NCBI GenBank assembly: GCA_045636865.1
Contig: JAZTYJ010000025.1
Location: 10,679 to 74,678 of the forward strand
Source of the DNA: Eubacteriales bacterium
GTDB lineage: Bacteria; Bacillota; Clostridia; Oscillospirales; JAAYXM01
Direction of reading: 5' to 3'
Length of the DNA stretch: 64,000 nucleotides
Shown here piece after piece: positions 3,610 through 31,660 of this stretch (position 1 is the stretch's first letter; each line of letters starts with the position of its first letter). The notes under the pieces were generated by a model. That model saw only the letters and a program-made list of their open reading frames with translations, was not told the DNA's origin and searched no databases. A program made the translations under genes and the position numbers.

Positions 3610-6075
3610 TTACATTTCCTCTCTGCGCATTTTCATTTCGTTCCACTCATCACGCGTAATGAGAATTTTTCTCGGCTTTGAGCCTTCAAACTCGCCGACG
3701 ATTCCGCGCTCTTCCATCTGATCGATGATTCTTGCCGCGCGCGAATATCCAAGCTTGAGCCTTCGCTGAAGCAGCGAGGTTGACGCCTGACCGGATTCGA
3801 CCACGACGTCGATTGCCGCAGAGAGCATCTCGTCTGCGTCCTCATCATCGGCAAACGCATCTGCCGCGCCTTCGTTCTTTTCTACCTGCTTTTCAATCTG
3901 ATCCATAACATCCTGTGAATACTCTGCAGTACTTCCCTGCTTTACGTATTCGACAACTGCCTCAACCTCATCCGAAGAAATAAAGCATCCCTGAACACGA
4001 ATAGGCTTTGATGCTCCCATCGGCTCGTAAAGCATATCACCTTTACCGATAAGTTTTTCAGCACCCATACTGCCGAGAATGATATTTGACTCAATTTTTG
4101 ACGCGACCGCAAATGCAATCCGTGACGGAATGTTTGACTTGATAACGCCTGTGATGACATCAACAGACGGACGCTGTGTCGCGATGATAAGATGCATTCC
4201 CGCAGCACGTGCCATCTGACTGAGTCGCATAATGGAGTCTTCAACATCCTTCTTTGCAACAACCATAAGGTCAGCAAGCTCGTCAATAACGACAACAATG
4301 CTCGGCATAGGCTCTGCATCTCCGGTTTTTGCAACCGCCTTGTTATATGCCTTCATATCTCGCACACCGCGTTCAGAAAACATCTTGTATCTTCTCATCA
4401 TTTCAAAAACTGCCCACTGAAGCGCACCTGCTGCTTTTTTCGGGTCCGTAACAACAGGGATAAGAAGATGCGGAATACCATTATATCCTACAAGCTCTAC
4501 CATCTTCGGGTCGATCATAATGAGTCGGACCTGCTCCGGCGTTGAGCGATAAAGCAAGCTTACGATAATCGAGTTTATGCAGACCGACTTACCTGAACCT
4601 GTCGTACCCGCAATGAGCATATGCGGAAGCTTTGAAATATCGCACACCATACACTTGCCTGAAATATCTTTTCCGAGAGCAAACGAAACATCGCTTTCGT
4701 TTTTCATAAACTCTTCAGACGCGATAACCTCCGATATATTTACCATCTGTGTATTCTGGTTCGGAACCTCAATTCCTATGAGCGGTTTTCCCGGAACCGG
4801 TGCAATAACTATGCCCGATGCGCTGAGAGAAAGCGCAATATCATCTGCAAGTGATGTAATCTTTGCAAGCTTTACACCTGCATCAGGCTGAACTTCAAAG
4901 CGCGTTACCGATGGGCCTCGGACGATGTTTACAACCTTGATATCAATACCAAAATTTCTTACCGTCTCACGAAGCTTTATGCCCATATTCTGAAGTTCTG
5001 TTGATGCCGCCGCAACGTTTGACACCTTCGGTGCATCAAGAAGCGATATGGGGGGATATGAATAAATCTTTTTGTTTTCTACGTTTTCAACCTCGCCGCC
5101 GAGGACACTCTCTGCAGTTTCAAGAAGCTCTTTGTTTTTTTCTTCTTCCTGCTTCGAGCTTTTTTCTATCGCATCCAGAATATCCTGTGTAAATACTTCT
5201 TCGCTATCCTCTGGCTCATCAACAGGTGTCTCATCGGGAACAGCCTCTTCCTCTGCTACAACTTCAGCAGGTGTTTTTACATTGCTCGGCGGAAATACAT
5301 ATGCAGGAACCTCTTCTTCCTCCTCTTCCACGTGGTCATCGTCAAGCGGAATATCGATTGATGCGCGTTTTTTCGGTGATTTTTTCGGTTCATTTTTAAC
5401 TACGGGCTCTTCAACAAATTCCTCTTCCTCTTCTTCATCGTCTTCATCATATTCCACTTCATGATGCATATTTGCAAAGAGGTTTTTGAGGAAATCATAT
5501 ACTCCCATAACTGTAACATTGAATGCAACAAGAAGCACAAACAATGTTGCCGCGACAAATAAGATTGCCGTTGCTATGGGGTTTATCCATTTCATGAGGA
5601 GAGCCGTAGGAAACCCTGCAAGAACTCCACCGCCGGTAAGCATTATTCCGGACTCAACCATACTTTTCCATACAAGATCAGTCGTTCCCACAAGCGAGTG
5701 TGCCGTTGCACCTACAAAATACGGAACGAGAAGCGTCGCTATAACCCTTCCCTTTATCGGCTTTCCGCGGCAGATCATGAGAAGCACGCCCACCATTACA
5801 AGCGCAAAAGGCAAGAGCATAAATCCGACACCTATCGCCGAGCTCATAAGATTTCTTAAACCTTCAATAACTACTCCTTCTGCACCGAAAAGGGCAAAGA
5901 ATGCAAGCAATGCAATTGCAAACACAACTATCGCCCATCTCTGATTAAGCTGCGCACGTCTTTTCTGCGTTATGCGCGTATTCGACGGCTTTCTCGAAGA
6001 TGACTTTCTTCTTGTCGAGCTTGTACTTTTTCTCACAGCCTTCGACTGCGTTGTTTTTTTCTTTTTCTGCGCCAT
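3610..6075 (-). CDS. ftsK: DNA translocase FtsK/SpoIIIE
   Basis: Basic N-terminus, 4-5 TM segments, acidic linker, motor domain with [13 protein letters not shown] (Walker A) and [10 protein letters not shown] (Walker B), and a C-terminal winged-helix gamma domain [21 protein letters not shown]. Start set at ATG 6075 (MAQKKKK). Confidence 0.9.
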
Positions 6076-6185
6076 TATGTACACCTCAAAATAATTTAAA
6101 ATCGTCCTTTTAGGGCAATGTATATTTTTACACAAATATATTATAACACAAATAAAATCAAATTGCCAGTAGTTATTTTTGCATA

Positions 6186-6216
6186 GCAAAAGAGCAGATC
6201 TGAATCTGCTCTTTTT
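6186..6216 (-). terminator. intrinsic terminator after the acyl-CoA ligase fusion gene
   Basis: Hairpin AAAGAGCAGAT-ctga-ATCTGCTCTTT flanked by A/T runs, 12 nt below the stop at 6228. Confidence 0.6.
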
Positions 6217-6227
6217 GCCGATATTCT

Positions 6228-8702
6228 TTACTTTTCAATGCCGAGGAGACCGAGGGATTCCTCACGCATTTTATATTTGAGAATTTTCCCTGCAGCATTC
6301 ATCGGGAAGTTCTTTACAAACAGGAAGTATCTCGGAACCTTGTGGCGGGCGATATGCTCGTTACCAAACTCGCGCATTTCAGCTTCATCCGCCTCCACGC
6401 CGTCGTGAAGGATAATCCACGCACAGCACTCCTCGCCGTACTTCTTGTCCGGAACACCGATAACCTGAACGTCGCGAACCTTCGGGTTTGTGAGATAGAA
6501 TTCTTCAATTTCACGCGGGTAGAGGTTTTCACCACCACGGATAATCATATCCTTGAGTCGTCCCGTAACCTTGTAATAGCCGTCGGGAGTTCTGCAACAG
6601 ATATCGCCCGAATGGAGCCATCCGTCTTTATCTATCGTCTGCGCTGTTGCCTGCGGCATCTTGTAATATCCCTTCATAATATTGAAACCGCGTGCTACAA
6701 ACTCTCCGCTTTCACCGTCGGGGAGCTCTTCTCCCGTTTCGGGATCAATTATCTTACACTCAACACCGGGGAATGCGCTGCCGACAGTTTCAACTCTGTG
6801 GTCGATATCTTCGTTAACCTCGCCCATCGTACATCCGGGAGACGCTTCGGTCTGACCGTAAACGCTGATGATTTCCTTCATATTCATCTCATCTGCCGCG
6901 CGACGCATAAGATCTGCCGGACAGTTTGCGCCTGCCATAATTCCCGTGCGGATATATGAGAAATCGGTCTTTGCGAAATCGGGATGGTTGAACATCGCGA
7001 TAAACATAGTCGGAACGCCGTTGAAGCACGTTATATGCTCATCATTTACACATGCAAGCGACGACTTCGGTGAGAAATACGGCATCGGACAGAGCGTTCC
7101 GCCGTGTGTCATCATAGATGTCATTGAAAGAACCATTCCGAAACAATGGAACATCGGAACCTGAATCATCATGCGGTCTGCCGTTGAGAGATCCATTCTG
7201 TCTCCGATAGTTTTGCCGTTGTTGACAATATTTCTGTGAGTGAGCATAACGCCCTTCGGAAATCCCGTTGTGCCGGACGTGTACTGCATATTACATACAT
7301 CGTCGGGCTTTACAAGTGATGCACGGCGGCGCACCTCTTCCTTCGGGATCTCGTTTGCGCGGTCAAGCATCTGCTCCCAGTTGAGGCATCCCGGCATATC
7401 AAAACCTACCGTTACGATATTGCGAAGGAACGGAAGCTTCTTTGCATAAAGCGGCTCGCCCGGCTGCATCTCTGAAAGTTCAGGACAAAGCTCCTGCATA
7501 ATTTCGCGATAGTTTGTATCCTTGCAGTCTTCAATCATAACGAGTGTATGAGTATCCGACTGACGAAGAAGGTATTCGATTTCGTGAATTTTGTATGCAG
7601 TATTGACGGTTACGAGCACCGCGCCGATTTTCGTTGTCGCCCAGAAGGTTATAAACCACTGCGGGACATTTGTTGCCCAGATAGCAACGTGGTCGCCTGC
7701 CTTTACACCGAGAGCAATGAGAGCCGCTGCCGCTTCATCAACATCCGCGCGGAATTCCGAATAAGTTCTCGTATAATCAAGTGTGGTGTATTTAAAAGCA
7801 TACTGGTCGGGATACATATCGACCATCGTATCAAGAACCTCCGAAAAGGTCTTGTCAATTACCTTATATTTCTCCCACACAAAAGTTCCTGTTTTCGCTC
7901 TGTTATAGTAAACAGGCTTTGAAACCTTCTTCTCTCCGCCGCTTTTTGCAATGTAATTTAAAAAGTGGGTGAGAACAATGTCGGCATCGTCAATCTCATC
8001 GTTCCACGCAACAGAGATAAAACCGTCGTAATTGAGTGATGAAAGTGCGGAGATAACTTCTCCTACAGGAAGAGTTCCCTCTCCGATGAGAACGTTTTTA
8101 CCGTCCTTGCGGTCACCGAGACGAACATATTTAATGTATGCACCGAGGTTTGTGATGGTATCCTCGGCACTTTCGCCGCCGTCAAAATACGTCTCGCGCA
8201 CATCCCAGGCAGCACCAAGAACCGCGCTTGAGAAGTAGTTTATGATATCAAGGACATTCTCCGTATGAGAAAGATAATCGGATGTTGAGAGAAGAAGCTT
8301 TACATCTGTCCCCTCTGCTCGCTCAATTGCCGGCGAAAGCTTTTCTGAAAGCTTTTCCAGATCAGGCTTTTTCTCAACGTGAACAATAACCCCCGAAACA
8401 CCTGCGCCGCGAGCCATATCCACATATCGCTTAACCGCTTCGGCATCTGCATTCTCCGAATCAAGCGCATGCGGATAAATGAGAGCAGAAACCTCAAGTC
8501 CGCGGTTTATGAGCTTGCGTTTTGAATCAGACACGCTTCCGCTGCGAAGGATGCTGTCGTGATGACGGACTCTCTCGCCGTCTGCATCGTAGATTTCAAA
8601 ACCCGAGAATCCGTAATCGTATGCATATTTGCAGAGATCAAGGAATGACGGACGTGATACGTTTTTTGTTGAAAATGTGAGTTTCATCTTAATTCTCCTC
8701 AA
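6228..8702 (-). CDS. fusion protein: xylose-isomerase-like TIM barrel (sugar-phosphate isomerase/epimerase family) + AMP-dependent acyl-CoA synthetase/ligase
   Basis: Residues ~1-260 ([10 protein letters not shown]...[10 protein letters not shown]...VHVEKKP...VRLGDRK) look like an AP-endonuclease-2/TIM barrel. Residues ~290-824 carry the adenylation motifs [18 protein letters not shown]-like [34 protein letters not shown] and GKILK. Confidence 0.8.
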
Positions 8703-10080
8703 AGACGATCTTGTTCAGCGCATTGATGTACGCGCGTACACTCGCCGCAACGATGTCAGTTGAAATTCCGTTTCCTGAATAGAGCTTTCCCTGACTGCGA
8801 AGACGGACAATAGCTGAACCGAGAGCCTCCTTGCCCTCCGTTACTGCCTGAATCTGGAAATCGTCGAGTTCATAGTGATATCCTATGCTGTTTTCTATTG
8901 CACGGAAAACAGAGTCGATCGGACCGTCACCCGTGCTGACTCCGCAGAGAAGTTCGTTTCCGCAACGGAGTGTAACCTGCGACATCGAGCTTGTGAGATT
9001 GCCGCAATTTGTTGTGTAGCTCTCAAGGTGATATTTCGACGGAGCCTGCATGGCAAAGCTTGCGATAAGGGCTTCAAGTTCTCTTGCGGCTACGCTGTCT
9101 TTCTTCTCACAGACTTTCTTGAGCTCTGCAAAAACGGTTCCGCAATCCTCATCCGAAAGGTCATATCCCAGAATCTTTGCGGCATCAGCAACCTCGGAGA
9201 GTGTGCTTTCAAAAGTGAGAAGAATTGAGCTTCGTGAGCCGTCTGCATCCTCATCGGTCTTCGGTGTGTCATGTGAAATTCTTTCAAGAAGCTCGCGGGT
9301 ACTTGTATGCACCTTCGTGCTCTTTAAGTCTGTATATGCATCAAATGCCTCGCCCCTGCGACTTATTGCATCTGAAATCGCACCTGTTGCAAGCACCTTA
9401 TCGCCTGCAAGGGCACACTTAATTCCTTCTGCACCTGCGCGGACAGCTGAAAGAGCGATTGCAACCGCCATATCGAGGCTGTCTGAAACCTGAACAAAAA
9501 CAGGAGTCTTAACCTTTGCGGTGATTTTTGCAACAAGCTCTGCCATTTCTTCGGGGAGAACCATTCCCGCGCTGTCGCAAAGAGTAACTTCCTTTGCACC
9601 TGCATTTACTGCCTCCGCAACACAACTCTCAAGGAAATCGTAATCTGCGCGCGTTGCATCAAGTGCAACAAACTCAACATCAGCACAATACTTGAGTGCC
9701 TCTCCTACAAGAGCTGAAATCTTCGGAAGCATCTTTTCTGCCTTGATGTGGTATGTATATTCCATAGCGACGGTAGATGTCGGAACAACTACCTGAAGGC
9801 GCGGCTTTTCCGCATCCTTTATGCATTCCCAGGCGGTCGCAACCTCATCCTCCGAAAAGCCTACAGGGATTGCAACCGTGCAACCCTTGACGGTTGATGC
9901 GATTGTCTTATAGATTATTGTATCCTCACGTAAATTTTTGATAGGAGCCAACTCAATAGCATCTGCGCCGAGAGCATTTGCAGCAGAAGCAATTGCAGTT
10001 TTCTCACGGAAAAGCAAAGCTACCTCGCGGCTCTGCGCAAGCTCCTTTAAAGTGATGTCAGAAATGTAGATTTTTTTCAT
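8689..10080 (-). CDS. 2-isopropylmalate synthase/homocitrate synthase homologue with degenerate catalytic motifs and an intact LeuA-type C-terminal regulatory domain
   Basis: Collinear with LeuA, but DTTLRDGEQ is replaced by DITLKELAQ and the HxH metal site (VHTHDD) by VQVSDS. The C-terminus TGDGPIDSVFRAIENSI...GKEALGSAIVRL...GISTDIVAASVRAYINALN matches the LeuA allosteric domain. ATG 10080 has RBS GGGG 8 nt upstream; the track start at 10098 is a TTG. Confidence 0.75.
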   Translation of the reverse strand: MKKIYISDITLKELAQSREVALLFREKTAIASAANALGADAIELAPIKNLREDTIIYKTIASTVKGCTVAIPVGFSEDEVATAWECIKDAEKPRLQVVVPTSTVAMEYTYHIKAEKMLPKISALVGEALKYCADVEFVALDATRADYDFLESCVAEAVNAGAKEVTLCDSAGMVLPEEMAELVAKITAKVKTPVFVQVSDSLDMAVAIALSAVRAGAEGIKCALAGDKVLATGAISDAISRRGEAFDAYTDLKSTKVHTSTRELLERISHDTPKTDEDADGSRSSILLTFESTLSEVADAAKILGYDLSDEDCGTVFAELKKVCEKKDSVAARELEALIASFAMQAPSKYHLESYTTNCGNLTSSMSQVTLRCGNELLCGVSTGDGPIDSVFRAIENSIGYHYELDDFQIQAVTEGKEALGSAIVRLRSQGKLYSGNGISTDIVAASVRAYINALNKIVFEEN

Positions 10081-10124
10081 TTTGAAAGCCCCTTTCAAAT
10101 TTATATCTGCAAAATTTTATCAAA

Positions 10125-10405
10125 CCAACAAAAAAACGCTTTCGTCTCATTGTCGATTCAAAGAGACGAAAACGTTAAGTTCAAAACTGTTTCCGCGGTA
10201 CCACTCTTTTTCACCCTTACGGATGCACTTTGGATGCCAACACATCTTAACTCTGTTACGGGAGTGCCCGTCTGCCCCTACTGCAAGTTCACGGCAGCCG
10301 CTCAACGGTGAGTTCTGCAAGTCTTCCCCGATGTCTCGCACCACCCGACATCTCTCTCGAGGCGAAAGAATTTTGCATACTATTCCGCATCACTGCGTTT
10401 ACAAT
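10125..10405 (-). promoter_or_regulatory. T-box riboswitch leader, specifier CUC (leucine)
   Basis: Minus-strand elements:
- AGTA S-turn half, AGAGAG bulge and GGTGGTGCGA distal loop;
- specifier loop GAA-CUC-A (codon is the complement of 10310-10312);
- T-box sequence AGAGTGGTACCGCGG (complement of 10193-10207);
- terminator TTTTCGTCTC-n14-GAGACGAAAGCGTTTTTTT ending ~10130. Confidence 0.85.
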
Positions 10406-10411
10406 AATGGA

Positions 10412-10440
10412 ATTTTACCACAGTAGAATATAAAAGTCAA
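10412..10440 (-). promoter_or_regulatory. sigma-A-type promoter of the T-box operon
   Basis: Minus strand: TTGACT, 17 nt, TAAAAT, with a TG at the extended -10 position. Confidence 0.6.
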
Positions 10441-10484: not shown

Positions 10485-12017
10485 TTAGTCGTCTATTTCG
10501 TTGTTTGTTGCATTTTCAAAAATTGCCAAAACTTCAGCTGACGGCTTTTTGTCGATAAGTGTTACAACTACCGCCGCAATTGCACCGATTATAAAGCCCG
10601 GTATAATCTCATAGATTCCTGTTGCTGCTGTGAGTGTTGCACCGTTAATCGGGAGCCACAACCAGAGCATATCAACCAAAGCACCGACTACGATACCTGC
10701 AACCGCACCCTTGTATGTAAAGCGTTTCCAGAAAAGTGAGAACAAAACTGCAGGACCGAATGCCGCGCCGAAGATACCCCATGCGTTTGAAACGAGGTCC
10801 ATAATAGCCTGTGCCGCATCACCTTCGCTGCTTGCGATAAAGTATGCAACAACTGCGATAACAATAACTATAAAGCGGCTTACCCAGAGCATTTCCTTGT
10901 TTGATGCGTTCTTTCTGATAATCGGCTTATAGAGGTCGCTTGCAAATGAAGATGCCGCAACAAGAAGCTGTGAGTCGGCAGTTGACATTGATGCCGCGAT
11001 AATTGCAGCAAGCAAAAGTCCTGCGATAAATGCCGGGAATACATCACGGGCAAGCTCGACAAATATCAATGACTGCTGACCGTTTTCAAGCAATACCTTT
11101 GAAAGGTCTGTGCCGTTTGAATATACAAACATTCTGCCGAGATACGCAATTACAACTGCTGCGCCGAGTGAAAGAATAACCCAGATAATTGCAACCGTTG
11201 CTGATTTTTTTACCATTGACGGCTTTTCGATTGCCATAAATCTTACGATGATATGCGGCATACCGAAATAACCAAGACCCCAGCCAAGACCTGAAACAAT
11301 ATCCTTCCAGCTTGCGTTCATAAAGCTTGCGACAAACTCAAACTCTTCGCCGTTCGGACCGTGATAAATCGTCGTAAGCGCTGCAGGATCAAGATCTTTT
11401 GCAAAACCTATGACAATAGGCACGATAAGTAGTGCCGCAAGCATAAGAAGTCCCTGGAAGAAGTCCGTCCAGCAAACTGCCTTGAATCCGCCGAGGAATG
11501 TGTATGCAAGAACGATTACTGCAAAAATGATCATCGCAGTTGACTTTGAGAGAGCGGGAACAAGCGTTGTGAAGACGTCTGAACCTGCAACGAATGCTGA
11601 TGCAACGTAGATCGTAAAGCAAACCAAAAATACTACTGCACAGATGATGCTCAAAGTATGGCTCTTTGAAAGAAAACGATTTGAAAGATACTGTGGAAGC
11701 GTGATAGCATCTCCTGATGCCTTTGAGAACTTACGGAGTCTCTTTGCCACGATAATCCAGTTTGCAGCAGTACCTATTGCAAGACCGATACCAATCCAGG
11801 CCTGACCGAAACCGAATGCCAGAATGCTTCCGGGAAGACCCATCAAAAGCCATGCGCTCATATCCGATGCTTGAGCACTCATAGCGGTTACCCACGGACC
11901 CATTGATCTGCCGCCGAGGAAGTAATCCTTTTCTGTTTCACTCTTTGACTTGAAGAAGAACCAAACACCTATAGCAACCATTGCTACAAAGTACAATGCA
12001 AATGCTAAAATATCCAT
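10485..12017 (-). CDS. putP: sodium/proline symporter (SSS family)
   Basis: 510 aa, ~13 TM. N-terminus DYFLGGRSMGPWVTAMSAQASDMSAWLLMGLPG is typical of PutP. Confidence 0.8.
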   Translation of the reverse strand: MDILAFALYFVAMVAIGVWFFFKSKSETEKDYFLGGRSMGPWVTAMSAQASDMSAWLLMGLPGSILAFGFGQAWIGIGLAIGTAANWIIVAKRLRKFSKASGDAITLPQYLSNRFLSKSHTLSIICAVVFLVCFTIYVASAFVAGSDVFTTLVPALSKSTAMIIFAVIVLAYTFLGGFKAVCWTDFFQGLLMLAALLIVPIVIGFAKDLDPAALTTIYHGPNGEEFEFVASFMNASWKDIVSGLGWGLGYFGMPHIIVRFMAIEKPSMVKKSATVAIIWVILSLGAAVVIAYLGRMFVYSNGTDLSKVLLENGQQSLIFVELARDVFPAFIAGLLLAAIIAASMSTADSQLLVAASSFASDLYKPIIRKNASNKEMLWVSRFIVIVIAVVAYFIASSEGDAAQAIMDLVSNAWGIFGAAFGPAVLFSLFWKRFTYKGAVAGIVVGALVDMLWLWLPINGATLTAATGIYEIIPGFIIGAIAAVVVTLIDKKPSAEVLAIFENATNNEIDD

Positions 12018-12138: not shown

Positions 12139-13566
12139 TTACTTATCCTTATTTGAATCTGATGATTTCTTAACGAGCTTTGAGAGAGCGACGAGTGCAA
12201 GAACGTTCGGGATAACCATAAGGTAGTTGAAGAAGTCTGTGAGCTCCCAGACGAGGTCGTTTGAAAGAAGTGTTCCGAGGAAGATGAACACGATTGCAAT
12301 TACTGAATAGATGACAACTGCAACCTTGCTGTTCTTGAAAAGATACTGAACATTGATCTTACCAAAGAAGTTCCAGCCGATAATTGTTGAGTATGCAAAG
12401 AAGAGAAGGCATATCGCAACAAACGCACTACCAAAACCTGTGCCGAAAACGCTTCCCATAGCCATCTGCATAGCATTTGTCTTTGCGATTCCGTTTGCAG
12501 AAATTGCATCCAGATAATTTGCGCTTGAGAGAAGACCGCCCTCACCAACGTAGAGAGTTGAGATGACAACAAGAGCTGTCATTGTGAGAACAACGAATGT
12601 GTCTACAAACACGCCTACCATAGCAACAACACCCTGGTCGTGCGGCTTCTTGACATCTGCCATCGCGTGAGCATGCGGAGTTGAACCCATACCTGCTTCA
12701 TTTGAGAAGAGCCCGCGCTTTGCACCCTGGCTGATGGCAGTCTTGAGAGCAACACCAATAGTTGCACCGAGAATAGCATCCGGCTTGAATGCATACTTGA
12801 AGATTGCCGCAAATGTTGCCGGGATGTACTGGATTCTTGCAATAATAACTACAAGACCACCGAGAAGGAAGAGAACTGCCATAATCGGAACGAGCTTTTC
12901 TGTAACTGATGCGATTCTCTTGATGCCACCGATGAAGATGAATGCAGAAACAACTGCAATAACAATACCGATAATCCAGCCCCACTGTGTGTAGTCAACA
13001 TTTACAGCGCTGCAAGCGGCCTCTGCGATTGAGTTTGACTGAACCATTGAACCAAAGAAGCCAAGAGCAACTGTGATTGCAAGAGCAAAGAATACTGCAA
13101 GGAATGTTCCGAAGCCGTTCGGGAACGCTTTTTTGATGTAGTAAACCGGACCGCCGTGGATTTCGCCGTTTGCATCAACCTCTTTTGTCTCCTGAGCGAG
13201 AACTGCTTCAGCGTAGATTGTTGCCATACCGAGGAATGCGATGATCCACATCCAGAAGATAGCACCTGGACCACCGACGAGGATAGCGCCTGATGCACCA
13301 ACGATGTTACCTGTACCTACCTGTGCTGCAACAGCAGTTGCAAGAGCCTGGAATGAGGTAAGACCTGCACCGTCACTCTTACCAAAGAGCTTAATGTTTC
13401 CAAAAACACTCTTCATACCTTCACCAAAGCAACGAATCTGAACGAAACGTGTTTTGAATGTGAAGAAGAGACCTACTCCAACGAGGAGCACGATGAGAAT
13501 GTAGTCCGCGAGAAAGCCGTTGGCTGTCTGGACCATTGCGAGAAGTGAGTCAAGAAATGCCTGCAT
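12139..13566 (-). CDS. alanine/glycine:cation symporter (AGCS family amino-acid carrier)
   Basis: MQAFLDSLLAMV...GLFFTFKTRFVQIRCFGEGMK...SFQALATAVAAQVGTGNIVG is typical of AGCS carriers. Start at ATG 13566 with AGGAGG RBS; the track ORF carries a spurious 21-aa extension. Confidence 0.85.
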   Translation of the reverse strand: MQAFLDSLLAMVQTANGFLADYILIVLLVGVGLFFTFKTRFVQIRCFGEGMKSVFGNIKLFGKSDGAGLTSFQALATAVAAQVGTGNIVGASGAILVGGPGAIFWMWIIAFLGMATIYAEAVLAQETKEVDANGEIHGGPVYYIKKAFPNGFGTFLAVFFALAITVALGFFGSMVQSNSIAEAACSAVNVDYTQWGWIIGIVIAVVSAFIFIGGIKRIASVTEKLVPIMAVLFLLGGLVVIIARIQYIPATFAAIFKYAFKPDAILGATIGVALKTAISQGAKRGLFSNEAGMGSTPHAHAMADVKKPHDQGVVAMVGVFVDTFVVLTMTALVVISTLYVGEGGLLSSANYLDAISANGIAKTNAMQMAMGSVFGTGFGSAFVAICLLFFAYSTIIGWNFFGKINVQYLFKNSKVAVVIYSVIAIVFIFLGTLLSNDLVWELTDFFNYLMVIPNVLALVALSKLVKKSSDSNKDK

Positions 13567-13632
13567 AATTTTTCCTCCTAAAAAATAAAAAAAGTTATCG
13601 CCTGCGATAACTCTGAAAACGCACAACATGAC

Positions 13633-13790
13633 ACCTTTTTAAAAGTGTTGTGCTTTTCTCTGTTCTTTTGCCTGAGAGATTCAGCGAAAATTCGCCTTAC
13701 ACCTTCGGCACCCATTTAAGAGATTCTCCAGAGTTCCCTCCCCTTTCAGTTTCTTTCGATTCTGAAAGTTTCACAGGGCAATATTAAATT
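13633..13790 (-). promoter_or_regulatory. glycine riboswitch (one clear aptamer plus expression-platform hairpin)
   Basis: The minus strand reads CTCTGGAGAATCTCTTAAATGGGTGCCGAAGGTGTAAGGCGAATTTTCGCTGAATCTCTCAGGCAAAAGAACAGAG. This matches the conserved CUCUGGAGA...GCCGAAGG...CUCUCAGGCAAAAGGACAGAG core. It is followed by GCACAAC...GTTGTGC-GTTTTC. Confidence 0.8.
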
Positions 13791-27737: not shown

Positions 27738-29123
27738 TTATCTTGCATCGAACCTTTCCATAAACGGCTCACATTCTTCAAGCGGAAGCGGTTTTGAATA
27801 ATACCACCCCTGAATATAGTCACAGTCTGATTCTGATACAAACTCATTCTGCTCTTTGGTTTCGACACCTTCACAAATAACCTTGATATTCAGACTATGC
27901 GCAAGAGCTATAATTCCCAAGAACAAGTCCCTTCCCTTTTTCGTTTCTGTCTTAAGAAGAATATCACGGTCAATTTTTACAACATCTATCGGATAATCAC
28001 AAAGATTTATAAGCGAAGTGTAGCCGCTTCCAAGGTCATCGAGATAAACATTGAAGCCGAGCTCCTTGCATTTTGCAACATTTTCCATTGCAAGATTTCT
28101 GTCTTTCTCCATGGCGTCTTCTGTAATCTCTATAACAAGCTTTGAGTTGTCAAACTCGTATTTACTCGAGATTGCGGTGAGGTTATCAACAAAGCTTTCT
28201 TCCGACAGAGTAATTCGTGTGAAGTTGCAGGAAATCGAAATATCCTTGCATTCCGTATCCTTCCACTTTTCAAGCTGACGGCAGACAAGCTCAAACATAT
28301 AGAAATCAAGCTTGCTGATAAGCCCTACCATTTCCATATTCTCGATATACATAGCAGGGCTCTGCAGTCCCTTATCCACGCTGTTCCATCTGGAAAGGGC
28401 TTCGGCAGATACTATCTTCTTTGTCTTATTATCGACAACGAACTGCAGATACATCTTGAATTCGTTGTTTTCAAAGCCTTTCAGGATGCTTTCCGTAATC
28501 TGCTTTTCTTCCTGAACAGAATTCATTGAATTTTTATCGCAAAATATAACCTGCTTTTCTGTACCAAAGATTCTGTTGCAATTTTTCCGCAGGTTAAAGA
28601 GCAGGAGCTCGCAGTTGCGGTCAGCTTCCGAAAGCGGATACACCGCCGCATAACAAGCAAGCTTTCCTCTTTTATCTCTTATGCCATCAAAAGCATTAAG
28701 CTTATTCATAAGCTCATTAAATCTCTTCTGAGCCTCTTCCTCTGTTTCCGACCGAAAAGCAAATGCAAAGCCGTTTTCGGTAATTCTTGCCGAAAAACTT
28801 CCGTCATCCGTACACTCTGACAAAACAGATGCAGCGTATTTGAGCGCATCTGCAAACGAGATCCCGCTTCTATCAGCCCTCAAAGATGCGATATCCAGAA
28901 CAATATATGCAACATAATAGGTGCTTCTGAGAATATCTCCTATGGTATATTTGAAATGGTATTTGAAAAACTGCAGATTTCCTATCCCTGTTTCACTATC
29001 TGTTACTTTATCTTCTTCGCTTTCCTTTTTCACCTGCCTTATCTTCGCAACCAAAACAGCTATCAGAACAAGCAATATCGGAATGAGCACGAATCTTATC
29101 AGAATCTTATCCATCGGATACAT
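27738..29123 (-). CDS. membrane-anchored c-di-GMP phosphodiesterase (degenerate GGDEF + EAL)
   Basis: One TM and a GGDEF-like domain lacking the GGDEF motif (ARITENGFAFAF). The EAL domain has EALSRW, EITED, DDLGSGYTSL, KIDRD, EGVETKEQ and QGWYYSKP. Start trimmed to ATG 29123 or 29114. Confidence 0.8.
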   Translation of the reverse strand: MYPMDKILIRFVLIPILLVLIAVLVAKIRQVKKESEEDKVTDSETGIGNLQFFKYHFKYTIGDILRSTYYVAYIVLDIASLRADRSGISFADALKYAASVLSECTDDGSFSARITENGFAFAFRSETEEEAQKRFNELMNKLNAFDGIRDKRGKLACYAAVYPLSEADRNCELLLFNLRKNCNRIFGTEKQVIFCDKNSMNSVQEEKQITESILKGFENNEFKMYLQFVVDNKTKKIVSAEALSRWNSVDKGLQSPAMYIENMEMVGLISKLDFYMFELVCRQLEKWKDTECKDISISCNFTRITLSEESFVDNLTAISSKYEFDNSKLVIEITEDAMEKDRNLAMENVAKCKELGFNVYLDDLGSGYTSLINLCDYPIDVVKIDRDILLKTETKKGRDLFLGIIALAHSLNIKVICEGVETKEQNEFVSESDCDYIQGWYYSKPLPLEECEPFMERFDAR

Positions 29124-29359
29124 CTCCCCTCTTTCAAGGACATTATATTCGTCGTGGTCTTGTATGATGTAACAAGCCCGACCGCAAATAAAAAACTGCA
29201 ACAACAGAAAGCCCTGCTTATGGGCCACTATTATTGCAGCTGGACTGGCATAGTATAAAACCTTAGCCTCTTTGCTTTGCGTCGCCGGCTTTCGCCGGGT
29301 TTGCCAAATATTCAATTTCTATCAGTTTATCACACTAAAGTTTTTCTGTCAAATATTAT

Positions 29360-31660
29360 TTAATCTTTTGCAAAAACCCAAAGGGTTTCGTTTGCGCGTT
29401 CATCCTCATCATTAAGCTTATATACAGTAAGAATAACGGTTTCACCATTGACCTTCTTGTAGGTGATTCTCGGAGCATTCCCTTCAATAAGCTGTTTTTT
29501 TATAGCATCATAATTCAGGAAACTTTCAACATATCTGTGAAAATCAGGGTGCACCATATCATTTATATACATCTCAAGAAGAGAAGAGAATTTATCTTCA
29601 TTCTCATTGTATCCAAGATATGCCGGCATAAGAATCCTGTGAGCTTTATTTGTGTCAAGAGAAACACGGTAGATTCCGTTATAGTGTTCCTTCACGACAG
29701 AAATCATTGTATCAATCTCACGGATTCCGGTCTTCGTTTGGACATAGCCGCTGTCTTCGTTTTTGACCGTACTCTTGTTTTCCTTGTTCTGGTAATAAGA
29801 AGCCTTTGCCTCATACATTCTCACCTCGGCCTCTCTTACCATTTCTTCGGTGTCTGTGTTCTGCGTTCTGTAAGATGTACCGATTGCGACATTATAATCC
29901 ATCGGCTTTAATCGTTCAACAAGAAGCTCTACTCCCTTCTGAATATCCGACGAATCTGTATCTTTTGCAAATACAAGGAATTCATCGCCGCCCATGCGAT
30001 ATATATTGTGGCCGTAGAATACCTCTTTCAAAGTGTTCGCAATAAATACAAGCATTTCGTCGCCTGCCGCATGGCCATATCTGTTATTGCGAAGATGAAG
30101 CTCGTTTACATCAATATAAACGCAGGAGAACTTGTACGGTTTTTCGCTGTCAAAATCGCAAATATCCCGCTTATAAACAACGCGATTGAGAACACCCGTG
30201 AGCGAGTCTGTCGTTGCAGCACGCTCTGTCTGGTTAAGATGTTTTTTGTTATAGAGCGCAATAGAGAAGCAAACTGCAATGTTTTCTGCAAGAAGCAAAG
30301 CATCTCTGCTCCTTGTTGGGTTGATTGCGCCAATAATAGAGATGTGATTGTCCTTACTTGTTACGGCAGCAAAAGAAACCTCTTTTATACCGTGAAATCT
30401 CAAGAATGTGAAAAAGCGTTTATTGGTTTCTGAAAGATGTTCATCCGGAACAATGCGCATAACATTCACGGTTGTTCCGCTCATCTTCCGAAGCTGCGCA
30501 GAATGATGCAACAACTCTTCGATAAAATACTTTCTGTCCTCACCCGTTAAGAGCTTACTCTCCTCCGTCGACAATATATAATGATAATCTTCGCCATCTG
30601 TATCAAAGAAGAAAGCCGACTGTGACTTCGCAAACAAACAAATCTTGCGGAGTGCTTCGGTTATATTGTTTTGCTGCTGATTGATTTCAAGGAGAGTCTT
30701 TCTTACATCAGACGAGCAGACAGTAACAGCATTTCTGCGTTTTTCGGCAGCCAGAATAAGCATTATATACAACGCCATCACAACAATCATTGCAAAGAAG
30801 GTGAGCAACAAGACCTTTGATATAGTATGTGTATCAGCAAATACCTGCGATTCATATCTCGCAAGAGTAATCTTCCAGCCAATATCCTCAATAGTAGAAT
30901 AATGAACATAGAGATTCTCTCCGTTATACGCCGAAACGAATGATGTGAACCCCTTATCGCTTTCCATCATCTCTTTATAGGAATAGCCATCGTTATATTT
31001 ACGGTCGCTGAGGAAGTTTATATTTCCGAGAGTTTCATGAAGCGAGTCAATAACAATGACACCATTTTCAAGGTCATGAACAAAAAGCTGAGCATCAAGC
31101 TCTTTTGCCATAAGGCTGTACCTTCTGTTTATAACCTCAGTATCGATGATACCGTACAATATACCGACAATCTCATCATTTACCTTTATCGGAACGGCAC
31201 TTCGGACAACTTCGTCACCTTCGGTTATGATAGACGGTACCCTTCCGCTTATGTACTTTCCCTTTGCGCTTTCCTCTTCAAAAGAAAGCTTGCCATTTAA
31301 GTCGAATTGTCTTCCGCGCGAAACAAATATGTTGTCAGGTGTCAAAATACCTATGCGCGAAAAAAGGCCTATAGGCTTAAAGGATTCAAAAACGCGGTCA
31401 TAGCTTTCGCCATCAGCATAAAGCTTTGCGGCAAAGTTTGCCATAGTGATAAGATTTTCTCTGTCAGAGATCATCTGCAGTGTGAGATCGTCTTTAATCT
31501 GCTTCGTCTGGATATGGAGCATCTCATACGCCTCGTTTTCGGCCTTTGTATAAAAATAACTCACCATCGACAAGAATATCACACACAATAAAAATACCGC
31601 TGTAACTGTACCCAAAACATTACTCTGTCTTTGTTTTCTTTTCTCGTATGTTATCGCCAT
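29360..31660 (-). CDS. sensor diguanylate cyclase (TM-Cache-like-TM, GAF-like, GGDEF, C-terminal PAS-like domain)
   Basis: 766 aa. LTGVLNR...YIDVNELHLRNNRYGHAAGDEMLV...IYRMGGDEFLVFA shows an intact GGDEF. No RxxD I-site lies 5 residues upstream. Confidence 0.8.
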   Translation of the reverse strand: MAITYEKRKQRQSNVLGTVTAVFLLCVIFLSMVSYFYTKAENEAYEMLHIQTKQIKDDLTLQMISDRENLITMANFAAKLYADGESYDRVFESFKPIGLFSRIGILTPDNIFVSRGRQFDLNGKLSFEEESAKGKYISGRVPSIITEGDEVVRSAVPIKVNDEIVGILYGIIDTEVINRRYSLMAKELDAQLFVHDLENGVIVIDSLHETLGNINFLSDRKYNDGYSYKEMMESDKGFTSFVSAYNGENLYVHYSTIEDIGWKITLARYESQVFADTHTISKVLLLTFFAMIVVMALYIMLILAAEKRRNAVTVCSSDVRKTLLEINQQQNNITEALRKICLFAKSQSAFFFDTDGEDYHYILSTEESKLLTGEDRKYFIEELLHHSAQLRKMSGTTVNVMRIVPDEHLSETNKRFFTFLRFHGIKEVSFAAVTSKDNHISIIGAINPTRSRDALLLAENIAVCFSIALYNKKHLNQTERAATTDSLTGVLNRVVYKRDICDFDSEKPYKFSCVYIDVNELHLRNNRYGHAAGDEMLVFIANTLKEVFYGHNIYRMGGDEFLVFAKDTDSSDIQKGVELLVERLKPMDYNVAIGTSYRTQNTDTEEMVREAEVRMYEAKASYYQNKENKSTVKNEDSGYVQTKTGIREIDTMISVVKEHYNGIYRVSLDTNKAHRILMPAYLGYNENEDKFSSLLEMYINDMVHPDFHRYVESFLNYDAIKKQLIEGNAPRITYKKVNGETVILTVYKLNDEDERANETLWVFAKD

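Follow-up and report, generated by a model that had tools for sequence, protein, structure and literature searches.

A leucine T-box operon pairing a LeuA-derived protein with a predicted branched-acid ligase in gut Clostridia

A stretch of 64,000 nucleotides from a Eubacteriales bacterium (contig JAZTYJ010000025.1 of assembly GCA_045636865.1; Clostridia, Oscillospirales), referred to here as the window, carries a two-gene operon behind a leucine T-box leader. Gene 1 encodes a protein derived from LeuA, and gene 2 encodes a TIM barrel fused to an acyl-CoA ligase. The operon lies on the minus strand, where its control elements and two genes span 6185-10440 (positions of the 64 kb window), and its possible role in making leucine from a branched short-chain acid is the subject of this report. 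In the direction of transcription its features are:

10412-10440, minus strand: sigma-70-type promoter (TTGACT, 17-nt spacer, TAAAAT, extended -10 TG; 10/12 consensus matches), directly 5' of the T-box leader
10159-10402, minus strand: T-box leader, Rfam RF00230 (122.8 bits against a gathering score of 93, E 1e-26, matched over the full model, 1-219)
10129-10176, minus strand: intrinsic terminator of the T-box, a hairpin and U-run (centroid structure with a 14+3-pair hairpin at 10176-10135, then UUUUUUU)
8689-10080, minus strand: gene 1, LeuA-derived protein of 463 aa, with a degenerate HMGL-like TIM barrel (residues ~1-270), a linker and a LeuA_dimer regulatory domain (330-458) (Pfam, AlphaFold2, Foldseek)
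7893-8687, minus strand: N-terminal xylose-isomerase-like TIM barrel of gene 2, residues 1-265 (PF01261, 59.5 bits; structure model; Foldseek)
6228-7892, minus strand: AMP-forming acyl-CoA ligase domain of gene 2, residues 266-819 (PF00501, 321 bits; PF13193, 56 bits)
6185-6219, minus strand: operon-ending hairpin between gene 2 and the ftsK promoter (-19.1 kcal/mol, z -4.65; 0/200 shuffles fold as well)

The promoter has an equivalent in a related locus (L007) that is a 12/12 consensus match, and a promoter-like site for ftsK lies at 6169-6140, beyond the operon-ending hairpin. In the Rfam covariance-model alignment the specifier loop reads GAA-CUC-A, with the leucine codon CUC at 10312-10310 and a purine next to it. 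The T-box sequence, AGAGUGGUACCGCGG (10207-10193), contains the UGGU bulge, the pairing partner of the tRNA 3' end, which is kept in 69/69 orthologous leaders. The 5' arm of the terminator hairpin is also the 3' strand of the antiterminator; the two structures compete and are mutually exclusive, and this shared strand, with the hairpin and U-run, marks the leader as a T-box of the transcription-attenuation type. The specifier loop, T-box sequence and terminator first picked out from the letters alone were thus all confirmed, CUC being kept after covariance-model alignment.

Leucine T-boxes of the same build (full RF00230 match, CUC plus purine, UGGU bulge, competing terminator and antiterminator) precede leuS and the ilv-leu genes in Bacillus and Clostridia. 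In contrast to these, the leader described here controls an acyl-CoA ligase and a LeuA-derived non-enzyme, and no aminoacyl-tRNA synthetase, canonical biosynthetic enzyme or transporter is under its control.

Gene 1 matches the Pfam families HMGL-like (PF00682, 104 bits) and LeuA_dimer (PF08502, 108 bits). It shares the two-part build of LeuA (PDB 3EWB, 3RMJ and 1SR9; leucine-bound 3FIG), in which an HMGL-like barrel is followed by a C-terminal LeuA_dimer domain with a GxGPxD(A/S) loop, and its best Foldseek matches are isopropylmalate and methylthioalkylmalate synthases (template modelling (TM) score 0.89 with 3EWB). However, a typical LeuA is some 50 residues longer, and gene 1 falls below every NCBIfam LeuA equivalog cut-off, its best score being about half of that needed (NF002086, 274 bits against 532).

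Alignment of gene 1 to 3EWB and 3RMJ confirmed a LeuA homologue without its catalytic residues, as the original prediction had it. Gene 1 has DITLKELAQ in place of DTTLRDGEQ, QVSDS in place of HxH(D/N)D, LDATR in place of EDATR and AGDKVLATG in place of NGxGERAGN. The 78 orthologues aligned all carry K for R80, L for E218, Q for H285 and S for H287. Position D81 of LeuA is E in the window and K in most of the 78. Compared with LeuA, gene 1 and its orthologues thus keep neither the catalytic Arg and Glu nor any of the metal ligands (one Asp and two His), and the uniformity of the replacements indicates that the loss is old and fixed and not a sign of decay.

Conservation within gene 1 is uneven. 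Across its orthologues, 50% of positions in the regulatory domain are invariant, making it the most conserved part of the protein, compared with 21% in the barrel. GDGPIDS, the counterpart in gene 1 of the GxGPxDA loop found in LeuA regulatory domains, varies little or not at all. Intact, full-length open reading frames (ORFs) for this protein occur in about 147 genomes, the orthologues being 461-464 aa long and 45-88% identical. T-boxes commonly sit upstream of leuA, and with the catalytic residues gone it might be supposed that gene 1 is a leuA pseudogene decaying after loss of the leucine pathway and that the T-box is a relic. The conservation pattern (full-length ORFs, the highly invariant regulatory domain, recurring replacements and strict coupling to the ligase gene) is that of purifying selection and rules out decay, leaving this explanation with next to no probability.

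The barrel of gene 1 is confidently modelled by AlphaFold2, with a predicted local distance difference test (pLDDT) score mostly >90. It keeps invariant DxTL, DATR and STVxMEY motifs together with a consensus at the replaced positions (K12, L140, Q197, S199), which is not the result expected of random decay. LeuA barrels are known to bind acyl-CoA. The protein might accordingly have gained an activity that needs no metal, directed at the product of the ligase or at a precursor of leucine; it could, for example, bind or transform isovaleryl-CoA or hand it on to the oxidoreductase. This is rather unlikely, as every known metal or catalytic residue of the DRE-TIM metallolyase family is replaced and conservation within the protein is lowest in the barrel.

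Gene 2 encodes 819 aa. Its Pfam domains, an AP_endonuc_2 TIM barrel (20-231) followed by AMP-binding (289-675) and AMP-binding_C, bear out the proposed fusion of a TIM barrel to an acyl-CoA ligase. It starts at ATG 8687, 8 nt past a GAGGAG ribosome-binding site and 1 nt past the gene 1 stop, the junction reading ...GAGGAGAAT TAA G ATG AAA CTC. MKL is the conserved N-terminus of gene 2 in 68 orthologues and gaps of 4-10 nt separate the genes at other loci, showing that the two genes are 1 nt apart. The 14-nt overlap (8689-8702) described earlier was an artefact of counting from the first in-frame TTG, at 8702. The 1-nt junction suggests translational coupling.

The ligase domain keeps the ANL core motifs A3, A5, A7, A8 and A10, including AAGK (read in the translation). 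Across 68 species-level genomes 73% of its positions are invariant and identity is 85-93%; for comparison, identity is 58-78% in the TIM domain and 61-72% in the LeuA-like protein. On this sequence evidence, gene 2 is an intact AMP-forming acyl-CoA ligase.

The TIM barrel of gene 2 was modelled with a pLDDT of 91.5, and Foldseek matched it to AsbF, ketose 3-epimerases and UlaE (TM scores 0.72-0.79, probability 1.00). It has the fold of the xylose-isomerase-like AP_endonuc_2 barrels but, unlike them, is fused to a ligase and lacks the four canonical metal ligands, which are replaced (E by S, HH by RE, H by R and E by A). The corresponding motifs change from LLIETNG to LLLSTSD, from WDVHHP to WDVRET, from VHVKDS to VRLGDR and from VSLEW to ISVAW. 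Two arginines stand in place of two histidine ligands and are invariant across 68 orthologues. By these motifs the ligase's own TIM barrel is also degenerate, a point absent from the original prediction.

Not all relatives of this ligase have lost the metal site. A search with the TIM domain against 50%-identity protein representatives returned mostly contig-end fragments, plus distant fused relatives with a metal site. These distant relatives (49-65% identity) keep an intact TIM site, the barrel being either fused at the N-terminus of the ligase or encoded by a separate gene downstream of it. No LeuA-like gene was found with the five that were aligned (L082, L083, L086, L087 and protein P0363), and none of ten scanned loci of this type has a T-box. 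A degenerate TIM barrel is accompanied by a LeuA-like partner in 142/142 testable loci, so that the partner is present where the metal site has been lost and absent where it is intact.

The contexts of the intact-TIM relatives differ (L082-L088, for example L083 at 6998-9520, together with P0363 and P0332) and include an AraC regulator and a rhamnosidase. The representative search also returned P0343 (776 aa), in which the TIM site is degenerate and the ligase P-loop is lost as well (PTYRFDGDVCAVML in its place); it may be a fully dead copy of the fusion.

The gene pair is widespread. From two scans of species-representative genomes 147 unique loci were obtained. They all come from metagenome-assembled genomes, mostly of ruminant and other animal guts, no cultured carrier having been seen, and at least 592 stretches among the genomes scanned matched the family motifs. 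The loci carry the labels Oscillospiraceae, Acutalibacteraceae, Christensenellaceae and Ruminococcaceae, with a few Lachnospiraceae or Spirochaetales. A locus search with the single homologue from L093 returned only itself, and an alignment query was used for the wider scan. The TIM::ligase gene lies directly 3' of the LeuA-like gene in 142/142 testable loci. A T-box motif is found upstream of the pair in 124 of the 139 loci with enough upstream sequence, and every T-box sampled was confirmed by Rfam, with scores at or near the gathering score. Ten loci have a leader ORF instead, and five have neither (L093, L099, L136, L169 and L170).

The Rfam alignments fixed the position at which specifiers were read. 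Of 140 motifs preceding the pair, a number of which come from overlapping loci, 128 have CUC, 4 have CUG and 2 have CCC, with 6 unresolved. The synonymous variation between CUC and CUG indicates that selection acts on leucine identity. With CUC or CUG in 132 of the 140 motifs, the gene pair co-occurs with leucine T-boxes in other Clostridia.

On one 256-kb contig (JAFUKG010000032.1) a region of at least 13 kb occurs twice (L056 and L059; 34699-48066 and 208161-221528). Both copies comprise the oxidoreductase, aminotransferase, T-box, gene pair and flanks in the same gene order and in opposite orientation, and the repeat must be due either to a large inverted duplication or to misassembly.

The ten loci in which a conserved leader ORF replaces the T-box (L010, at 5744-5965; L019, L029, L031, L047, L061, L062, L120, L123 and L125) show a second mode of control. 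The ORF has 34-36 codons, among them an Ile/Leu run such as ILLINAIIILL, and ends in a conserved NSAxCRV tail. MSTALFMAYILLINAIIILLGEHRMNSAICRVCK and MNSLTVFTSVIILINAIIILLAESSDNNSAFCRVLM are two examples, and MSTALFMAYILLINAIIILLGEH likewise contains an Ile/Leu run. It lies between a promoter and a GC-rich hairpin with a U-run (a terminator), upstream of the LeuA-like gene. Synonymous changes from locus to locus indicate that the ORF is translated. The arrangement looks like ribosome-mediated attenuation by the supply of isoleucine and leucine, which would be unusual in Clostridia.

In nine loci a branched-chain aminotransferase gene follows the ligase gene at a distance of ≤ 150 nt (6-37 nt in the six measured). 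Next, in order, come genes for a P-loop protein, a small 2x[4Fe-4S] ferredoxin and the subunits of a VorB-type oxidoreductase. Both enzymes score above the cut-offs of their models, the aminotransferase with 505 bits for NF009897 (cut-off 307) and the alpha subunit of the oxidoreductase with 536 bits for NF005507, the VorB model (cut-off 399). At least eight of these nine extended operons have the leader ORF, the upstream sequence of L022 being too short to tell, and no T-box motif was found in any of the nine. Within about 6 kb of the pair, the aminotransferase is present in 17 and the oxidoreductase in 15 of the 147 loci.

At L007, where the pair has its own leucine T-box, a downstream aminotransferase-oxidoreductase operon has a separate, perfect promoter. 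Its leader (9836-10090) contains an Ile-rich small ORF (MNFMTIINIITVISIIIIGGIIINIGNKNNAVCHV) and then a hairpin with a U-run; no T-box or other Rfam family matched this region.

A parallel for isoleucine and valine lies beside the leucine pair. In 43 loci there are one or two genes (~767 aa) for a fusion of a helix-turn-helix (HTH)-cupin module to an AMP-binding ligase, each with its own T-box. In one subfamily the specifier is AUC (Ile) in 40 cases, plus 6 in which the gene is cut by the contig end; in the other it is GUA (Val) in 12 cases. Both types occur at L154, where their T-boxes are:

9753-9992 (L154): isoleucine T-box of an HTH-cupin::ligase gene
~1975-2190 (L154): valine T-box of an HTH-cupin::ligase gene

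The isoleucine T-box of L154 was confirmed by Rfam (98.2 bits, aligned as ...AUC-A...). Further loci with such ligases beside the pair are L146, L100, L110, L117, L118, L129, L137, L138, L145 and L148. In all three classes the codon lies directly 5' of the purine and the closing helix covaries (GCGG/CCGU in Leu, GAGG/CCUC in Ile and GAAA/UUUC in Val leaders). Helix and codon position were taken from the sequences themselves and from the Rfam alignments; for stem I of the three leader classes RNAalifold gave the distal helix only, MAFFT having misaligned the 5' side.

The HTH-cupin::ligases match MacsMa (PDB 3ETC) at E 1e-199, and their best NCBIfam model is MbcS. MacsMa prefers 2-methylbutyrate (PMC10455477). 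The ATP-dependent activation of C4-C5 branched acids by MacsMa and MbcS is also the chemistry proposed for the leucine-controlled ligase. By comparison, the leucine-controlled ligase belongs to a different ANL subfamily (~23-25% identity) and has a degenerate TIM barrel at its N-terminus where the others have the HTH-cupin module. An isoleucine T-box thus controls a close relative of a 2-methylbutyrate ligase. This validates reading the specifier as a label for the amino acid into which the acid is converted, and isovalerate is the natural prediction for the leucine-controlled ligase.

Also present just upstream of the leucine T-box pair in seven loci (L044, L046, L051, L063, L065, L075 and L079) is a PaaK-like ligase of the phenylacetate-CoA type, adjoined in several of them by a protein with a pair of ACT domains. 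This ligase and the ACT protein may form a further module for salvage of acids to amino acids, again pairing a ligase with an amino-acid-binding partner.

From the conserved leucine control, the neighbouring genes and the Ile/Val parallel, it is moderately probable that the two genes form an operon induced by leucine starvation, in which the ligase activates isovalerate for leucine synthesis and the LeuA-like protein is its non-catalytic regulatory partner. Uncharged tRNA-Leu(GAG) would pair with the CUC specifier and the UGGU bulge and stabilize the antiterminator, allowing read-through into the operon. Judging from its regulation and gene neighbourhood, the ligase probably forms the CoA thioester of isovalerate and perhaps those of further short branched acids. 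Reductive carboxylation of isovaleryl-CoA by a 2-oxoacid:ferredoxin oxidoreductase of the VorB type would give 2-oxoisocaproate, from which a branched-chain aminotransferase would make leucine; both enzymes are encoded in relatives and, in this genome, presumably outside the window.

Salvage of a branched acid under leucine starvation had been put forward in the original prediction and now has strong comparative support (the conserved leucine specifier, its replacement by a leader peptide, the aminotransferase/VorB operons and the Ile/Val parallel). The accompanying statement that the operon contains no functional leucine-biosynthesis enzyme holds for canonical leucine enzymes but goes too far, since the ligase probably catalyses the opening step of another route to leucine.

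Rumen bacteria are reported to use branched acids for amino acid synthesis, the classic demonstrations reportedly being those of Allison and co-workers. In gut anaerobes isovalerate and 2-methylbutyrate are used for the synthesis of leucine and isoleucine (PMC10658910). Enzymes of the reductive carboxylation route proposed here, known from rumen bacteria and methanogens, are those encoded beside the pair or in its operon in 15-17 loci. The pseudoenzyme partner has no counterpart in the classical scheme. No prior description of a T-box-controlled acyl-CoA ligase, of the LeuA pseudoenzyme or of isovalerate reductive-carboxylation genes was found in the searchable literature; as far as found, the activating enzymes of gut Clostridia and their regulation have not previously been assigned to genes.

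It is plausible that the LeuA-like protein is a leucine-sensing regulatory partner of the ligase, because its regulatory domain is highly conserved, its gene is 1 nt from that of the ligase and it co-occurs with loss of the TIM metal site. The role is also suggested by analogy, since the Ile/Val ligases carry a fused, sensor-like cupin module and the nearby PaaK-like ligases pair with ACT-domain proteins. As a LeuA paralogue that has lost its metal site and kept its regulatory domain, it would most likely give end-product feedback by leucine on the committed step, as HisZ does for HisG, and the degenerate TIM barrel of the ligase is a likely docking or ligand-binding module for it. HisZ is likewise a dead paralogue of an enzyme that recognizes the end-product (histidyl-tRNA synthetase), encoded beside the first committed enzyme. 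The comparison is one of analogy only, the two systems not being homologous.

Branched acyl-CoA could also be destined for lipids. In Staphylococcus aureus MbcS serves branched-chain lipid synthesis, and it is the MbcS model that the neighbouring Ile/Val ligases match best. The leucine-controlled ligase might then scavenge free isovalerate to supply isovaleryl-CoA as primer for iso-branched fatty acids when leucine is scarce and its catabolism, the usual primer source, fails, the Ile and Val ligases likewise supplying anteiso and iso-even primers. The aminotransferase and oxidoreductase, running oxidatively, also yield branched acyl-CoA. However, T-boxes typically govern genes that restore charged tRNA, and no fatty-acid synthesis genes lie near the pair in the neighbourhoods examined. 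Aminotransferase and oxidoreductase share the ligase operon in the nine extended loci, under an Ile/Leu leader attenuator in at least eight, and induction when isoleucine and leucine are scarce would make no sense for a route that consumes them. A primer-supplying role as the explanation of the operon is thus unlikely. Isovaleryl-CoA is common to both fates, so that the roles are not mutually exclusive and lipid synthesis is a possible second fate.

A catabolic direction, from leucine to isovalerate, was considered and rejected. The AMP-forming ligase reaction is effectively irreversible, and control by starvation argues for synthesis.

Several observations weigh against the isovalerate-to-leucine reading of the operon. 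An oxidoreductase or aminotransferase lies within about 6 kb of the pair in only 15-17 of 147 loci, and tblastn found neither in the 64-kb window. The regulatory domain of gene 1 was modelled poorly by AlphaFold2 (pLDDT ~40-65). At two loci, L001 (~1250-1494) and L021 (~2586-2832), both confirmed by Rfam, the specifier position holds CCC, a proline codon, which could be due to sequencing or consensus error, mismatch tolerance or a real change of specificity. Furthermore, the ligase is not close to any characterized short-chain ligase. The closest NCBIfam model is PRK12583 (674 bits against a cut-off of 832), and the best PDB matches are a fatty-acyl/feruloyl-CoA synthetase pair (270 bits).

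Given this likeness to generic fatty-acyl ligases, the substrate might be unrelated to branched acids. The ancestral TIM-plus-ligase module, whose intact-TIM relatives occur in varied contexts with neither T-box nor LeuA-like gene, may process a sugar-acid or keto-acid, leucine control being incidental or answering some other need. This is quite unlikely in view of leucine-specific control conserved across 124 loci, the operons shared with aminotransferase and VorB-type oxidoreductase and the adjoining branched-acid ligases of characterized type under Ile and Val T-boxes. In addition, it is exactly the leucine-controlled clade that lacks the TIM metal site, having lost it.

The genes next to the operon in the window were also considered. 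The sodium:solute symporter encoded immediately upstream (10485-12017) was a candidate for an isovalerate importer in the operon and was rejected: it is the proline symporter PutP (TIGR02121, 521 bits against 515.5), it lies outside the operon with its own terminator hairpin (10474-10438), and a distant homologue lies near the pair only in L015. Beyond PutP, on the minus strand (12139-13741), a single glycine-riboswitch aptamer (13741-13650, 53.7 bits) lies 5' of a gene for a symporter of the sodium:alanine family; one aptamer is found at the gathering score and not the usual tandem pair. Neither PutP nor the riboswitch with its neighbouring symporter gene is part of the T-box operon.

Elsewhere in the window, also on the minus strand (27738-31660), a c-di-GMP-I riboswitch (29315-29232, 63.7 bits) lies directly 5' of a gene for an EAL phosphodiesterase, with a GGDEF-domain gene just upstream. 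Together these could form a c-di-GMP feedback circuit.

A wider proposal, held more tentatively and falling somewhat short of probable, is that salvage runs through three channels. Ligases for isovalerate, 2-methylbutyrate and isobutyrate would be labelled by Leu (CUC), Ile (AUC) and Val (GUA) T-boxes, with the two dead TIM barrels forming a leucine-feedback module. If this is true, the operon represents a new pseudoenzyme-regulated committed step, analogous to HisZ-HisG.

It has been known for some sixty years that rumen and hindgut anaerobes need branched volatile fatty acids, from which they make leucine, isoleucine and valine. In the dominant uncultured Clostridia the activating step had not been assigned to genes, and the T-box specifier offers a readable label for the ligase belonging to each amino acid. 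Such an assignment would improve predictions of auxotrophy and cross-feeding in metabolic models of the gut and rumen and is relevant to the feeding of branched-chain fatty acids to ruminants. As a case of a pseudoenzyme, gene 1 suggests that the leucine-binding domain of a dead LeuA may be redeployed to regulate a different committed step.

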